64,000 nucleotides of DNA. Origin: an archaeon. Its GTDB lineage: Archaea > Undinarchaeota > CAZHTU01 > JBDRCC01. Of this stretch, positions 1 to 7,068 are shown piece after piece. The stretch is taken from positions 32,001 to 96,000 of the forward strand of contig JBDRCC010000007.1 of the NCBI GenBank assembly GCA_043822065.1, written 5' to 3'. Below the pieces are notes generated by a model. That model worked only from the letters and a program-made list of their open reading frames with translations, did no database searches and had not been told where the DNA came from. Both the position numbers and the translations under genes were made by a program. Within the stretch, counting starts at the first letter, position 1; each line of letters opens with the position of its first letter.

Positions 1-1478
1 TGCTGAAAAAAGAACCAAATCCCATCCTCGTGGCGTACTTTAGGAGCAACTCACTGGTTGAGCACCATGTTTCTTCGTTTAATGACTTCTTAGACCGCGG
101 GCTCCAGAGCGTAATTGACGAAATCAAGGTAATCGAGCCGGAGCTAGAAGACTATTACATAAAGCTCGGAAAGATATTCGTCGACGAGCCGGTTTCGAAG
201 GAGGCGGACGGAAGCACCAGGAAAATCTACCCGAATGAGGCAAGGCTCAGGGACAGGACCTATTCCGCGCCGATAACCCTTGAAATGACTGCTGTTGAGG
301 GCGGGGAGGAGCAGGAGACCATGAAAGTGGTCATTGGCAAGCTCCCAATCATGCTCAAGTCAAAGAAGTGCCTCCTGGCCGGGATGACCGATGACGAGCT
401 CATCCGTGTCGGGGAAGACCCGCAGGACCCGGGCGGCTACTTCATCATAAACGGGACCGAGAGGGTTTTAGTCCTTGTTGAGGACCTCGCATCAAACCGG
501 ATTCTTGCCGAGCACAACAACACGACCAACACAAACGTCGCAAAGATATTCTCCGCGCGCGGCTGGTACAGGCGCCCCTGCACCCTTGAAGTCCGCGGCG
601 ACTCGTCACTCAAATTCCTGTTCCCGCCCCTGGCCAAGCCGGTCCCAGTCTTCATAGTCCTGAAGGCACTCGGCCTCAAGACAGACCGCGAGCTGTTCGA
701 CTCTGTAACGAAGGACGCTGCAGTCCAGCAGGAGCTCCTCGTTGCGAACGAGGAGGCGGCAGAAGTCGTGACCGTCTCTGATGCTCTTGACTTCATCGGC
801 AAGCGCGTGGCAGTCGGGCAGCAGAGGGAGCAGAGGATTGAGCGCGCAGAGCAGGTCCTGGACAAGTACCTCCTCCCGCACGTCGGAATGGAGCGCGCAG
901 ACAGGGCGGCAAAGGCATATTTCATAGGCAAGATGGTCGAGAAGCTCCTCATGTTCAATATTGGAAAGATTCCAGCAGACGACAAGGACCACTACGCAAA
1001 CAAGCGCCTCAGGCTCGCAGGCGAGCTGATGGAGGACGTATTCCGCGTCGCGTTCCGGGGGCTCGTCGCAAACGCAGTATACTCACTTGAAAAGGCAGCC
1101 CGCAGGGACCGCAAGGTCGCAATAAGGACTGCAATCCGATCATCGCTTCTGACCGAGCGCATAGGCCACGCAATGGCGACAGGCGCGTGGGTCGGAGGGC
1201 GGCAGGGAATCTCCCAGCACCTCGACAGGCTCAACCACCTATCGACGCTTTCACACCTCAGGCGCGTAAGATCGCTCCTTTCTAGGACCCAGCCGCACTT
1301 CGAGGCAAGGGACTTGCACGCAACCCACTGGGGCAAGATTTGCCCGAACGAAACTCCGGAAGGCTCAAACATCGGGCTTGTCAAAAACCTCGCGCTTCTG
1401 ACCGAGATAACAAATCAAGTGGACGAGAAGCCAATTGAAGACGCCCTCATAGAGCTTGGCGTGCGGAGGGCATGGTAA
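1..1478 (+). CDS. rpoB2: DNA-directed RNA polymerase subunit B'' (Rpo2N); ATG probably begins 1 nt before the window
   Basis: Motifs YPNEARLRDRTYSAP, DPGGYFIINGTERV, CPNETPEGSNIGLVKN; frame is open back to position 1 ((A)TG CTG AAA...). Confidence 0.97.
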   Translation, partial: LKKEPNPILVAYFRSNSLVEHHVSSFNDFLDRGLQSVIDEIKVIEPELEDYYIKLGKIFVDEPVSKEADGSTRKIYPNEARLRDRTYSAPITLEMTAVEGGEEQETMKVVIGKLPIMLKSKKCLLAGMTDDELIRVGEDPQDPGGYFIINGTERVLVLVEDLASNRILAEHNNTTNTNVAKIFSARGWYRRPCTLEVRGDSSLKFLFPPLAKPVPVFIVLKALGLKTDRELFDSVTKDAAVQQELLVANEEAAEVVTVSDALDFIGKRVAVGQQREQRIERAEQVLDKYLLPHVGMERADRAAKAYFIGKMVEKLLMFNIGKIPADDKDHYANKRLRLAGELMEDVFRVAFRGLVANAVYSLEKAARRDRKVAIRTAIRSSLLTERIGHAMATGAWVGGRQGISQHLDRLNHLSTLSHLRRVRSLLSRTQPHFEARDLHATHWGKICPNETPEGSNIGLVKNLALLTEITNQVDEKPIEDALIELGVRRAW

Positions 1479-3280
1479 TGGCAAGCATATTCGTGAACGG
1501 CAAGTTTGTCGGACAGCACGAAAAGCCAGCCCAGCTGCTGAAGTCCGTAAAGGAACTGAGGCGCGATGGCAAGCTTCCGGGCGGAATCAGCATCGCACAC
1601 TACGCTGACCTGGACGAGATACAGATAAACACAGATGCGGGCAGGATACGGCGCCCTCTGCTTGTCGTCACCGGCGGCAAGTCGCCAATCACCCAGGAGA
1701 TAAACGACAAGCTCAAGAGCGGCCAGCTGACAATCGCAGAGCTCATAAGGCGTGGAATACTCGAGTACCTTGACGCAGAAGAAGAGGAGAACGCCTACAT
1801 CGCCCTTCACGCGAGGGACCTGACAAGCGAGCACACCCACCTTGAAATCCACCCAGAGACAATCTTCGGCATAAGCACAGGGATAATCCCTTACCTTGAG
1901 CACAACCAGGCGTCAAGGGACAACCTCGGCGCTAACATGTCCAAGCAGGCGCTCGGGATGTACGCCGCGAACTTCCACCACAGGGCAGACACCCAGCGGC
2001 ACATCCTCCATTACCCGCAGGCGCCGCTCGTGACAACCGAGATAGGCGAGGTTCTGAAGGTATGGAACAGGCCGTCCGGGCACAACGCAGTTGTGGCAGT
2101 CCTTTCCTACGAGGGCTACAACATGCAGGACGCACTCATACTCAACAAATCATCCTGTGACCGGGGATTCGCGCGCTCTACCTTCTACCGCACCTACGCG
2201 ACCGAGAAGATAAGGTATGCTGGCGGGCAGGAAGATGACATAATGACCCCTCCTGAGGACGTCTCAGGCTACAAATCGGAGCGGGCGTACCGGTTCCTTG
2301 ACGAGGACGGAATAATCACGCCAGAATGCGACATTGAGGCTGGCGACGTGCTCATTGGAAAGACCTCCCCTCCGCGGTTCCTTGAGAGCCTTGAGGAGTT
2401 CGGCGCCGCAGTCACGAAGAGGCGCGAGAGCAGCGAAGTGGTCAAGCACGGCGAGAGGGGCACGGTCGACATAGTCGTCCTGACAGAGACCGAGGACGGA
2501 AACAAGCAGGTCAAGGTAAAGCTCCGCGACCTCCGGGTCCCAGAGCTCGGTGACAAGTTTGCGTCCCGCCACGGGCAGAAGGGCACAGTGGGGCTTCTTG
2601 TAAACTCAGAGGACATGCCTTTCACAGAAAACGGCGTAGTCCCAGATGTCATAATCAACCCGCACGCCATCCCGAGCAGGATGACCGTTGCGCAGCTGCT
2701 CGAGACCATCGCCGGCAAGGTCGGCGCCATGGAGGGCAGGTACATCGACGCAACCGCGTTCTCAGGCGAGCCCGAGGCTGACCTTAGGAAGGCGCTCGAA
2801 AAGCTCGGCTTCAGGGACAACGGCAAGGAAGTCATGTACAACGGGATAACCGGCGAGAAGTACGAGGTTGAGATATTCATTGGCGTCGTCTACTACCAGA
2901 AGCTAAAGCACATGGTCGCAGACAAGATACGCGCAAGGTCAAGGGGCCCCGTGCAGGTTCTCACCCGCCAGCCTACAGAGGGCAAAGCCCGCGAGGGAGG
3001 GCTCAGGGTCGGAGAAATGGAAAAGGACTGCCTTGTCGCCCACGGCACTGCCATGCTGCTCAAGGAGCGGCTGCTCGAGGAGTCAGACAAGACGCAGGTT
3101 CCAATCTGCCTGTCATGCGGGATGACCGCGATATACGACCGGTACCGCGACATAAAATACTGCCCGCTCTGCGGAGAGGACACAAACGTCCAGCTCGTGG
3201 AGATGTCATACGCATTCAAGCTCCTCCTGGACGAGCTCAAGTCAATGTGCACGTACCCAAGGCTGGAGATAGGTGATTAG
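1478..3280 (+). CDS. rpoB1: DNA-directed RNA polymerase subunit B' (Rpo2C)
   Basis: GDKFASRHGQKG, NPHAIPSRMT, RQPTEGKAREGGLRVGEME, C-terminal Zn ribbon; TAATG coupling to upstream gene. Confidence 0.98.
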   Translation: MASIFVNGKFVGQHEKPAQLLKSVKELRRDGKLPGGISIAHYADLDEIQINTDAGRIRRPLLVVTGGKSPITQEINDKLKSGQLTIAELIRRGILEYLDAEEEENAYIALHARDLTSEHTHLEIHPETIFGISTGIIPYLEHNQASRDNLGANMSKQALGMYAANFHHRADTQRHILHYPQAPLVTTEIGEVLKVWNRPSGHNAVVAVLSYEGYNMQDALILNKSSCDRGFARSTFYRTYATEKIRYAGGQEDDIMTPPEDVSGYKSERAYRFLDEDGIITPECDIEAGDVLIGKTSPPRFLESLEEFGAAVTKRRESSEVVKHGERGTVDIVVLTETEDGNKQVKVKLRDLRVPELGDKFASRHGQKGTVGLLVNSEDMPFTENGVVPDVIINPHAIPSRMTVAQLLETIAGKVGAMEGRYIDATAFSGEPEADLRKALEKLGFRDNGKEVMYNGITGEKYEVEIFIGVVYYQKLKHMVADKIRARSRGPVQVLTRQPTEGKAREGGLRVGEMEKDCLVAHGTAMLLKERLLEESDKTQVPICLSCGMTAIYDRYRDIKYCPLCGEDTNVQLVEMSYAFKLLLDELKSMCTYPRLEIGD

Positions 3281-5794
3281 ATGATACGCTCTATTAGATT
3301 CTCACTGCTGAGTCCGGAGCTGCTGCGCAAGATGAGCGTCGCTAAGATTGTCACCCCTGACACCCACGACGCAGACGGCTACCCGATAAAGGGAGGGCTC
3401 ATGGACCCGAGAATGGGTGTAGTAGACCCAGGCCTCAGGTGCAGGACCTGCAGGTGCAGGATGGGCGACTGCCCAGGGCACTTCGGCCACATCGAGCTCG
3501 CAAGGCCCGTCCTCCACGTCGGATACGCAAAAAATGTTTACGAATTCCTCCGCTGCTTCTGCAGGAAGTGCGGACGGGTCCTCGTGCCTGAGAAGGAGAT
3601 AATCGAGCTGCACAAGGCGGTTGAAGAGGGCGAGGAGAAAGCCCGCATCTCTGATGCGACCCTCAAGGCAGCCCGCGACACGAAGAAATGCCCGCACTGC
3701 GGGGAAAAGCAGATTAAAATCATGTTCGAGAAGCCGACCGCGTTCTTTGAGGACAAGGACAGGCTCACCGCGACCGACATCCGCAAGCGGCTGGAGAAGA
3801 TATCGAATGAAGACCTCGAGATTCTCGGCATAAGCTCGAAGGACGCCAGGCCGGAGTGGATGATTCTGACAATTCTTCCGGTTCCGCCCGTAACTACAAG
3901 GCCGTCAATCACGCTTGAGAGCGGCGAGAGGTCTGAGGACGACCTGACCCACAAGCTTGTCGACATACTCCGGCTAAACCAGCGGCTTGCAGAGAACATC
4001 GAGGCAGGCGCACCGCAGCTCATACTTGAGGACCAGTGGGAGCTTGTCCAGTATCACGTCACTACTTATCTCGACAACGAGGTCTCCGGAATCCCGCCCG
4101 CAAGGCACAGGTCAGGACGGCCGCTGAAGACAATCGCCCAGAGGCTTAAGGGCAAAGAGGGCAGGTTCAGGTACTCGCTCGCAGGAAAGCGGGTTGACTT
4201 CTGCGCAAGGACGGTCATTTCCCCAGACCCGAACCTCAGGATTGACGAGGTAGGCGTGCCAATCCGAATCGCAAGGGAGCTCACCATACCTGAGCGCGTA
4301 ACCCAGTACAACAAGGACTTCCTTGTCAAGATAGTCAAGAACGGCGAGAATTATCCGGGTGCGAACTACGTCATCCGCGCAGACGGCAAGAGGCGCAGGA
4401 TAAACAACGAGAACTCAGAGGAGGTCTCCAAGGAAGTGGACACCGGCTTCACAGTCGAGAGGCACCTTGTCGACAATGACATAGTCCTGTTCAACCGGCA
4501 GCCCTCACTCCACCGGCTTTCAATCATGGCTCACCGCGTAAGGGTCCTCCCCGGAAACACATTCCGGCTCAACCTCTGCGTCTGTTCGCCATACAACGCC
4601 GACTTTGACGGGGACGAAATGAACCTCCACGTTCCTCAGACAGTTGAGGCCCGCGCAGAGTCGCTGATGCTCATGGGCGTGAACTACTCACTCCGCTCGC
4701 CAAGGTTCGGCGGCCCGATAATAGGCTGCATACACGACCACATAACCGGCGCATACCTTCTGACAAACGACAAGATGGTCCTCTCACGGGAGAAGGCTGC
4801 GCAGATTTTTGGAGCCTGCGGCATGGTGCTGGAGGGCGAGAAAGAAAAATACACTGGAAAGGAAATCTTCTCCATGCTCCTGCCGGACGACATGAACCTG
4901 GAGTTCAAGTCAAAGTTTGGCGAGATGGTCACAATAAAGAACGGCAAGCTCGTAAGCGGCGTGATTGATGACAAGGCAATCGGCGCATTCTCAGGGATTA
5001 TACTAGATTACATGATAACCAAGTACGGCTGTGAGTTCGTCGCCAACTTCCTCAACAAGTTTACAATAATCGCGATAGCTATTGCTGCCATGATTGGCGT
5101 TACAAACGGCCTTGACGAGGAGGACCTGCCGCCGAAGGCGCTCGAGGAGATAAAGTCATTGCTCGATGACACAGAGAAAAAGGTTTCAAAAATTGTCAGC
5201 ATGTACCACGAAGGCTCCCTGAAAATCCTGCCTGGCAAGACCCTCCAGGAGACGCTCGAACGGAAAATCATGTCCACCGTCAATAAAGGAAGGGACGCGG
5301 CAGGCAAAGTATCCGAGTCATACCTCAAGGAAAACAACCAAATCGCAATCATGGCAAGAACCGGCGCTAGGGGAAACATACTCAACATAACCCAAATGAG
5401 CGCATGCCTTGGCCAGCAGGCAGTCAGGGGCCAGAGGATAAACCGGGGATACCGCACTAGGACTCTTCCGCACTTTAGGGAGGGCGACCTCGGGCCGCGG
5501 GCGCACGGGTTCGTAAGGAGCTCATACAAGACCGGGCTTGGCCCGATTGAGTTCTTCTTCCACGCGATGGGCGGAAGGGAGTCTCTCACAGATACTGCAA
5601 TGAGGACGCCGAAGTCAGGCTACCTCCAGAGGCGGCTTATAAACGCGACCCAGGACCTTAAGGTCGAATACGACGGCACAGTCCGCGACAACAGCGGCAC
5701 AATCATCCAGTTTGAATACGGCGAAGACGGGGTCGACACAAGCAAGAGCGATCTCGGAACAGTAAAGCTCGAGAAGGTGTTTGGAACAAAATGA
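3281..5794 (+). CDS. rpoA1: DNA-directed RNA polymerase subunit A' (Rpo1N)
   Basis: Catalytic NADFDGD, N-terminal [10 protein letters not shown] Zn site, bridge helix near the C-terminus. Confidence 0.98.
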
Positions 5795-7068
5795 AGGCAG
5801 ACTTTGAGACAATAAAGGCGAGGCTTCCTCCGAAGATACTCTCCCAGGTAGAGGCGCACATAGCCGACAACAAGATTTCAGAGTCCAAGCAGGGTGACAT
5901 TTACTCAAAAGTCTACGAGCTATACAAGTCATACCGCGTCCAGCCGGGCGAAGCGGTTGGCACCATTGCTGCCCAGAGCATAGGCGAGCCTGGCACGCAG
6001 ATGATGATGCGGACGAAGCACTACGCCGGGGTCGCGATGGAAGTAACCAGGGGTCTGCCGAGGCTGATTGAGATATTCGATGCGCGCTCGATACCCTCAA
6101 CGCCGAGCATGGAAATCCACCTCGAACCGGAAATGGCGAAGAGCGAGGAAAAGGCAAAAGGGTGCGCAAACAAAATAGTCCAATCCTCAGTCAACCAGCT
6201 TGCGAAGTCAATAGAGATAGACTTTGGCCAGGCAAGGGTCGTAGTCAAGTTCGACCAGAACATGCTCAAGGAGCGGGCCATAGATGTCCTCGACACCGTC
6301 AAGCACCTCAAGAACGAGCTGAGGCACAAAATCGGGATAGAGGGCACCGAGGTTTACGTCCAGGCGAGAAAATCGTCCGCAGCGTCCCTTTATGCGCTCA
6401 GGGACAAAGTAAAGAACGCAAGGATTGCGGGCGTATCCGGAATCGAGCACGCGGTGCTCCAGGAAACCGGCGGCGAATTTATCATCTACACCAGGGGCTC
6501 AAACCTGAAGGACATACTAAACCTTGAATTCGTCTTGAAGGGCACGACAATCACAAACGACCTCTATCAGGTAGAAAAGGTCCTCGGCATTGAGGCGGCA
6601 AGGGCCACTATAATAAAAGAGGCGACCGAAACGCTTAGGGACGCGGGCTTGGTCGTCGACGCCAGGCACATCATGCTAGTCGCAGATGCCATGTGCGCAA
6701 CAGGCTCTATACAAGCTATTGGAAGGCACGGTGTTTCAGGCGATAAGGGCTCAGTCCTTGCGAGGGCAAGCTTTGAGGAGACAGTAAAGCACCTGCTACT
6801 TGCCAGCATATACGGCGAGTCAGACTATCTTAGGGGAGTCGTCGAGAACGTCATCGTCGGGCAGGTCGTCCCAGTAGGGACCGGTCTGCCGAAGCTCGTA
6901 ATGAAGTCGGGCGACGAATCAATCAAGACAATCCAGCCAGGCAGGCAAGCTCCAGCCCAGGCGCCGGCAGAGGAAGCCCCTCCTGCGGAAGAAGAAAAGC
7001 CAGAATCTGGCGAAGAAGAGCCAGAGCAAAAAGCTAAAAAAGGCAAAGGTACAAAGTCAAAGTCCTGA
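5791..7068 (+). CDS. rpoA2: DNA-directed RNA polymerase subunit A'' (Rpo1C)
   Basis: [46 protein letters not shown]; acidic/basic tail. Confidence 0.98.

Follow-up and report, generated by a model that had tools for sequence, protein, structure and literature searches.

A Lys-His trigger loop in the RNA polymerase of Undinarchaeota and its occurrence in other prokaryotic lineages

Trigger loops of described RNA polymerases

How fast and how accurately any cellular RNA polymerase works is set by its trigger loop, the Phe-His pair of which is, to our knowledge, usually treated as almost universal. Here, we analyzed the trigger loop of RpoA'' (Rpo1C), the trigger-loop subunit encoded in a 64,000-nucleotide stretch of the archaeal contig JBDRCC010000007.1 (positions 32,001 to 96,000; this whole stretch is referred to as the window), which derives from a genome of the phylum Undinarchaeota. 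In this loop, the Phe that precedes the catalytic His is replaced by Lys.

The canonical archaeal Rpo1C proteins of Sulfolobus/Saccharolobus, Thermococcus, Pyrococcus, and Methanocaldococcus jannaschii are the same subunit as the window's RpoA'', with the same domain and operon position. Work on the Pyrococcus furiosus enzyme reported that L83 and H87 of A'' correspond to L1081 and H1085 of Rpb1, respectively, that the H87A variant is inactive, and that deletion of the loop tip results in a slower rate and a higher substrate affinity at a cost in discrimination of only about 4-fold (PMC3737540). Since P. furiosus A'' H87 corresponds to Rpb1 H1085, Lys76 and Met72 of the window's RpoA'' correspond by offset to F1084 and T1080, respectively. 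Like the canonical proteins, the window's loop has GEPGTQ, a Met/Leu base-stacking site, Arg, Thr, the catalytic His, YAG, and GLPR. Unlike them, it has Lys directly before the His, Met at the fifth position before it, and a tip that is one residue shorter; the Phe, the Thr, and the tip length of the canonical consensus Q-M-T-[ML]-R-T-F-H-Y-A-G are thus all absent from it.

In yeast RNA polymerase II (Pol II), substitutions of F1084 concern the same position by offset and include a basic residue made there in the laboratory. F1084 and F1086 were suggested to orient H1085, and the same source describes F1084K and F1084Y as loss-of-function variants, F1084I as a gain-of-function variant, and F1084D and F1084N as distorting the site (PMC10069792). 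F1084I was reported to cause faster elongation with a larger rise in misincorporation (PMC3325174). T1080 was placed in a hydrophobic pocket stabilizing the open loop, variants of which were mostly gain-of-function (PMC5127505), and the effects of trigger-loop substitutions in yeast were described as strongly dependent on the enzyme context (bioRxiv 10.1101/2023.02.27.530048). The yeast F1084 substitutions are laboratory single mutants of a eukaryotic enzyme, whereas the Lys described here is the wild type of whole phyla.

Plant Pol V (NRPE1) is also a natural polymerase without Phe at this position. F1084 and H1085 were described as triphosphate contacts that are lost in Pol V (bioRxiv 10.1101/2023.04.30.538882). 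Pol V has neither the F1084 nor the H1085 equivalent, has a much shorter loop, and is an accessory enzyme, whereas the window's enzyme keeps the His and is the sole polymerase. We found no publication that describes polymerases of DPANN or Patescibacteria with Lys at this position, although the supplementary tables of natural loops from the Kaplan laboratory may contain Lys.

The trigger loop of the window and its conservation in Undinarchaeota

The rpoA'' gene is an open reading frame (ORF) at positions 5791-7068 on the + strand and encodes 425 amino acid residues. Its product belongs to the Rpb1 domain 5 family (RNA_pol_Rpb1_5, PF04998; E = 2.2e-45, 155.7 bits with a cut-off of 28.5), and residues 7-373 match solved archaeal Rpo1C/A'' chains with an E value of 6e-89. 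As is characteristic of Rpo1C, it is encoded directly after rpoA' as a separate polypeptide. In-frame translation places the trigger loop, G65-R91, at 5983-6063 (+). The codons GGC GAG CCT GGC ACG CAG ATG ATG ATG CGG ACG AAG CAC TAC are found at 5983-6024 (+), in frame with the ORF at 5791-7068, and the residues are numbered G65, Q70, M71, M72, M73, R74, T75, K76, H77, and Y78. The original prediction gave these bases and their translation exactly, its end at position 6033 taking in the A-G-V that follows. Lys76 is specified by AAG at 6016-6018 (+) and takes the place of the Phe that canonically precedes the catalytic His (F1084 of yeast Rpb1, counted from H1085), and the codons of His77, the kept catalytic/positional His, and of Met72, at the site of yeast Rpb1 T1080 by offset, are at 6019-6021 (+) and 6004-6006 (+), respectively. 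The remaining substrate-contacting positions, Q70, M73, R74, and H77, are unchanged, and H77 and M73 are the catalytic His and the base-stacking Met/Leu of Rpo1C (P. furiosus A'' H87 and L83, respectively).

The window's genome (G000) is about 1.03 Mb in size, consists of 22 contigs, and is 82% complete. It contains a single RpoA'' match and a single trigger-loop-like motif, and the ORF has no internal stop codon. The motif T-Q-M-x-M-R-T-K-H-Y-A-G was found in 16 of the 17 species genomes of the phylum; the seventeenth (G009, 84% complete) gave no RpoA'' match at all. The Lys codon is AAG in 15 of these genomes and AAA in one (G016), and the Arg and Thr codons also vary. Because the codons for Arg, Thr, and Lys differ between genomes of the phylum, these residues appear to be held by selection on the protein. 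The search of Rpo1C sequences for RTKH suggested in the original prediction was positive for every genome of the phylum in which the gene is present (16 genomes) and for 51 of 120 closest RpoA'' proteins (the window's own and 119 listed matches), the other 69 having RTFH. Of the 51 proteins with RTKH, 50 read MMMRTKHY and one reads MIMRTKHY, and the Lys-bearing set tops the score ranking. The best named match (74% identity) bears the label Candidatus Undinarchaeota. L054, a public contig with the label Candidatus Undinarchaeales, is identical in both the loop and the bridge helix and groups within the clade of the window's phylum.

The original prediction had further argued that a change from a Phe codon (TTY) to AAG takes three base changes, which is correct, and that a read error is unlikely, which is borne out by the occurrence of the same residues, specified by differing codons, in 16 genomes and by the RTKH motif in 51 of the 120 proteins. 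As judged from these sequences, the Lys-His trigger loop is a real natural variant in the cell's sole RNA polymerase, encoded by a single intact copy as far as the 82% complete genome shows. In 15 of 17 genomes of the phylum, that of the window among them, a TFIIS-type zinc ribbon (PF01096) was found, and factor-dependent transcript cleavage is thus probably retained.

To compare the active center among archaea, the C-terminal 500 residues of RpoA' and the N-terminal 110 residues of RpoA'' from 75 archaeal loci were projected onto the window's proteins by tblastn. All 16 rows of the phylum have His at position 77 and Met at position 72, the latter being Thr in 56 of the 59 rows from other archaea. 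The loop tip, from YAG to GLPR, is one residue shorter than in the other aligned archaeal rows, except for L181 (G025), which was aligned without a gap. Residue 76 is Lys in 16 of 16 rows of the phylum, in 22 of 22 Iainarchaeota-type rows, and in 12 Nanoarchaeota rows; the remaining 25 rows have Phe or Tyr. The loop had been predicted to be lineage-specific. Within the 75 rows, this description suits Met72 and the shorter tip, which are confined to the phylum, but not the replacement of Phe by Lys, which is found in other phyla. The combination of QMMMRTKH and a short tip, which may be of use for annotation and phylogeny, was seen in all genomes of the phylum with the gene and was absent from the other lineages examined.

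Distribution and origins of the Lys-His loop

A set with one genome per prokaryotic species was scanned with the pattern G-E-P-x-T-Q-x4-T-K-H-x-[AG]-G, which yielded at least 119 loci; all those listed are polymerase trigger loops. By their labels, 27 of the 119 listed loci are archaeal and belong to Iainarchaeota, Nanoarchaeota/Woesearchaeota, Parvarchaeota, and Undinarchaeota, with 15 having no phylum and one labelled Methanosarcinales. The listed bacterial loci are mainly from Patescibacteria, with 19 from Saccharimonadota, 8 from Woeseibacteriota, 7 from Shapironibacteriota, 6 from Minisyncoccota, 4 from Kaiseribacteriota, and others from further groups, and 18 listed bacterial records have no phylum, many of them being titled 'Patescibacteria group'. 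The other listed loci include seven from Bacillota, one from Planctomycetota (7.2 Mb), and one from Caldipriscota. A few Lys-bearing genomes have a Clostridia label. In addition, 16 listed loci are labelled Pseudomonadota (uncultured Gammaproteobacteria/Pseudomonadales) and have uninterrupted, Microgenomates-like loops (including L031, L032, L035, L047, L066, and L077). The two genomes checked among them (G540 and G541) are about 0.8 Mb in size. The Pseudomonadota labels of these 16 contigs are probably wrong.

Individual phyla were then surveyed with a pattern that left the residue before the His free (the phyla of G041, G042, and G044) or with a Lys-specific pattern (the window's phylum and the controls). 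Among the 17 genomes of the window's phylum, 16 were matched and all 16 have Lys. In the phylum of G041 (Candidatus Iainarchaeum label), 187 of 215 genomes were matched, and Lys was found in 149 of 149 on-target loops among the matches listed, which also contain one off-target row; 39 further matches lie outside those listed. In the phylum of G042 (Nanoarchaeota label), 117 of 141 genomes were matched, and 4 of about 116 loops have Lys (G042, G300, G384, and G335), the rest having Phe. In the phylum of G044 (Saccharibacteria label, Patescibacteria), 128 of 141 genomes were matched, of which 14, 1, 2, and 111 have Lys, Arg, Tyr, and Phe, respectively; the 14 Lys loops comprise five T-K-H, eight S-K-H, and one V-K-H. 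The Lys-specific pattern gave 0 of 201 in the control phylum of G026 (non-DPANN archaea, 158 of high quality), and in the control phylum of G543 (Clostridia label, 151 genomes), it matched G543 alone and none of the 150 others. Thus, the original view that the Phe before the His is close to invariant fails for small-genome lineages, in which Lys, Tyr, and Arg also occur.

The T-K-H loops of the Iainarchaeota-labelled phylum, some Nanoarchaeota, and Patescibacteria (for example, Saccharibacteria, Woesebacteria, and Shapirobacteria) have the same Lys beside a kept His as the window's loop. Unlike the loops of the window's phylum, they keep Thr at the Met72 site and the longer tip. In the Iainarchaeota-type loops, the C-terminal GLPR is replaced by GIQR, and the bridge helix is very different. 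The whole active center of this G041 phylum (L193-L198 and L185) is divergent: the loop ends with VSVGSGIQR rather than VTLGLPR, the bridge helix reads GGRQGEVDTGVSTKVSGYLYRRL, and in the link motif (AGKALHGAKM), the equivalents of Rpb2 R766 and Y769 are Lys and His, respectively.

The residue before the His was also compared among 24 relatives of the window from the same domain. Lys was found in G035 and G037, Tyr in G021, G031, and G036, and Phe in the other readable loops, those of the non-DPANN relatives included. G038 (L029) reads RTFH, G020 gave no trigger-loop match, and the comparison included no locus of G033. The Tyr residues occur in S-Y-H, T-Y-H, and A-Y-H loops (L025/L188 of G021, L182 of G036, and L184 of G031), and the Patescibacteria with neither Phe nor Lys (G447, G419, and G505) have Tyr in two cases and Arg in one (V-R-H). 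Tyr is one base change away from Phe and could represent a step from Phe towards Lys. In G035, a Nanoarchaeota-like genome of 0.8 Mb that is 100% complete, the loop (L180/L208, at about 47-48 kb of C2) reads QMTLNTKLLAG, so that Lys takes the site of the Phe and the catalytic His is replaced by Leu; this was observed in one genome only, and the nearest row, L095, is T-K-H. Among the Phe-bearing relatives are two with an interrupted loop, L023 (G040) and L030 (G039), in which the loop is split after TQMS by an insert ending with THN before TMRTFHYAG. The insert looks like an intein.

The number of origins was estimated on a tree of the 75 archaeal rows, which was inferred with the quick method of IQ-TREE under LG+G4 after removal of the trigger-loop columns. 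Twelve rows had been dropped beforehand, namely six duplicates (L188, L180, L185, L193, L189, and L192), the rows less than 35% filled (the intein-interrupted L023 and L030, and L203, L075, and L143), and L183, which has no trigger-loop match. The 22 Iainarchaeota-type rows, all with Lys, formed a clade with a support of 100, and the 16 rows of the window's phylum formed a clade with a support of 87. The 19 Nanoarchaeota rows also formed a clade with a support of 100, in which Lys occurs in several separate sub-clades among Phe bearers. The distribution of Lys and non-Lys residues needs seven changes on this tree, and its starred branches force at least three. The tree indicates that the replacement of Phe by Lys arose several times, although each such replacement requires three base changes.

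Neighboring residues and possible explanations

According to the yeast study, F1084R is lethal and is rescued by Rpb2 Y769F or Rpb1 Q1078S, and F1084, Q1078, and Rpb2 Y769 are near one another when the loop is closed (bioRxiv 10.1101/2023.02.27.530048). We therefore examined the corresponding part of RpoB', the C-terminal half of the split subunit B (1472-3280, +; Pfam Rpb2 domains 4-7). An ungapped alignment pairs residues 131-180 of RpoB' with 748-797 of yeast Rpb2, and thus R149 and L152 of the link-domain motif HNQASRDNLGANMSKQ (1901-1948, +) correspond to R766 and Y769, respectively. The Y769 equivalent is Leu in 16 of 16 rows of the phylum and Met or Tyr in non-DPANN archaea. As a specific partner of Lys76, L152 was rejected: Lys bearers have Leu, Ile, Val, Gln, or His at this position, and Phe-bearing Nanoarchaeota have Ile, Gly, Phe, or Met. 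In the same motif, the Pro before the phosphate-binding Arg (SPR in other archaea) is Ser in the window (ASR) and Thr in the rest of the phylum (ATR), and the GANM that follows was found elsewhere only in L176 among the archaea compared.

In RpoA' (Rpo1N; 837 residues, 3281-5794, +; Pfam Rpb1 domains 1-5), the projected alignment places the bridge helix at G764-L786 (5570-5638, +), with Pro777 and Lys778 at 5609-5614. Among the groups compared, Thr770 is confined to the phylum; Met774 is nearly so, Met also occurring in four Nanoarchaeota rows. Ser768, Pro777, and Lys778 are common to Nanoarchaeota with either a Lys or a Phe loop. All 19 Nanoarchaeota rows have the hinge Pro (RTPKSGY); in the other archaea of the comparison, it is rare (1 of 18). 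P777-K778 occupy the positions of A822-Q823 in the hinge of M. jannaschii A', where S824P and Q823D were described as superactive and A822P as having detectable activity, with Q823 and S824 touching the base helices of the loop (PMC2776397). The window's residues are natural rather than engineered, and its Pro adjoins the S824P site, one residue earlier. Yeast T834P, a gain-of-function variant, is a further bridge-helix hinge mutant of this comparison set. Pro-Lys was rejected as a partner of Lys76, T-P-K-S-G-Y being found also in Phe-bearing Nanoarchaeota; the hinge occurs there regardless of the loop residue and is thus not tied to Lys76.

A column scan covered 610 aligned positions (A' 338-837 and A'' 1-110), with RpoB represented by the link motif. 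Only M72 and K76 were fixed in the phylum and differed from a consensus of at least 70% of the rows other than Lys bearers and Nanoarchaeota. The sole columns that distinguish Lys-bearing Nanoarchaeota from Phe-bearing ones are K76 and, weakly, A' 704. Given that these two sets differ just at these columns, the replacement of Phe by Lys seems to be tolerated without an obligatory partner change in the scanned parts of A' and A''.

The polymerase genes of the window begin with rpoB'', encoding the N-terminal half of the split subunit B (30-1478, +; Pfam Rpb2 domains 1-3). As judged by Pfam domains, the gene order is the canonical archaeal block rpoB''-B'-A'-A''-L30e-NusA(KH)-S12-S7-EF-2-EF-1a. 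Beyond the conserved end of RpoA'', residues 380-425 (6928-7065) form a tail of 46 residues in which Ala, Pro, Glu, and Lys are abundant. Most relatives have 375-397 residues, and the closest match (P0003), with 480 residues, is longer than the window's protein of 425 residues.

A fixed, selectively maintained variant of rpoA'' that retunes the positioning of the histidine and of the phosphates of the nucleoside triphosphate (NTP) is, in our judgment, probably the best explanation overall. In the N-terminal trigger helix, Lys76 would immediately precede His77 and lie on a face that in Pol II adjoins Rpb2 Y769 (RpoB' Leu152) and Q1078 and is described as touching the NTP triphosphate. Its methylene groups would keep the hydrophobic packing against Leu152, and its amine would add a positive charge next to His77 near the NTP phosphates. 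The changed His position and NTP grip would then retune the rate and accuracy of nucleotide addition without disabling the enzyme. The direction would likely be towards somewhat slower catalysis, since yeast F1084K is a loss-of-function variant. An alteration of kinetics or fidelity, as put forward in the original prediction, is plausible, its support coming from yeast Pol II genetics. In Undinarchaeota, Met72 and the shorter tip may additionally shift the balance between the open and closed states of the loop. This packing and charge mechanism, in the exact form given here, is put forward tentatively and could well be wrong in its details.

Several points weigh against this explanation or the counts behind it. 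The mechanism is extrapolated from yeast Pol II, in which context governs the effects of trigger-loop substitutions. The proposed packing partner, the Rpb2 Y769 position, does not track the replacement of Phe by Lys, and no co-varying residue was found in the 610 columns and the link motif, which leaves the contact of the Lys amine without a pointer in the sequences. The survey counts were obtained with exact nucleotide patterns requiring G-E-P-x-T-Q and the His, and loops split by inteins or with other flanks are missed. In the tree, Lys rows are over-represented, many of them having come from the Lys scan, and the tree method was a quick one. The deep placement of DPANN lineages is notoriously unstable.

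The strongest competitor, which we regard as possible but distinctly less likely, is that the substitution is near-neutral or slightly harmful, and that Lys, Tyr, and Arg were fixed by chance under relaxed constraint in small populations of symbionts with reduced genomes. Such drift would fit the clustering of non-Phe residues in small-genome lineages (Lys, Tyr, and Arg in Patescibacteria; Tyr in three small archaeal genomes and Lys in others), the unusual variability that the same lineages show in their bridge helix and link domain, the lack of a partner substitution among the positions scanned, and the yeast F1084K variant, which is viable yet loss-of-function. However, Lys is kept without exception over phylum-level divergence (16 of 16, and 149 of 149 among the listed matches) with AAA and AAG varying, which argues for purifying selection. 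Moreover, three base changes are needed each time, yet the tree forces at least three separate changes, and most Nanoarchaeota and Patescibacteria, which are equally reduced, keep Phe. By this evidence, purifying selection maintains Lys in every lineage that has fixed it.

An adaptive gain, in which the Lys amine and the His together bind the NTP triphosphate and lower the NTP concentration needed for loop closure, to the benefit of scavengers of host nucleotides, is doubtful. Its appeal lies in the enrichment of Lys in DPANN and Patescibacteria (16 of 16, 149 of 149 listed, 4 of about 116, and 14 of 128) over the controls (0 of 201 and 0 of 150), in the strict conservation of Lys once gained, and in the description of F1084 as a triphosphate contact in the work on Pol V. 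Nevertheless, most sampled Nanoarchaeota and Patescibacteria keep Phe, one Lys bearer (G544) has a genome of 7.2 Mb, and F1084K in yeast causes a loss rather than a gain of function. We likewise consider it improbable, though conceivable, that DPANN and Patescibacteria nucleotide scavengers adapted convergently by a Lys/His triphosphate grip at low NTP, with Undinarchaeota having gone furthest (Met72, the short tip, and Thr770/Met774). A sequencing or assembly error, a decaying gene, or a second polymerase copy is hardly credible: although the genome is a draft of 22 contigs and 82% completeness, the same residues recur with different codons in 16 genomes and in 51 database proteins, the ORF is intact and lies in a canonical operon, and neither a second RpoA'' match nor a second trigger-loop motif was found in the genome.

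The Lys-His loop adds a natural variant to a well-known element and does not represent a new kind of system, and it is less singular than originally supposed. Its fixation in whole phyla and its recurrence in both ultra-small radiations would be moderately surprising to a polymerase specialist and are easily testable. Whole phyla run their sole polymerase with Lys-His, and the recurrence of this pair in DPANN and Patescibacteria provides a natural experiment on the role of the Phe. If the substitution is neutral, a change that impairs the yeast enzyme can be harmless in another polymerase background.

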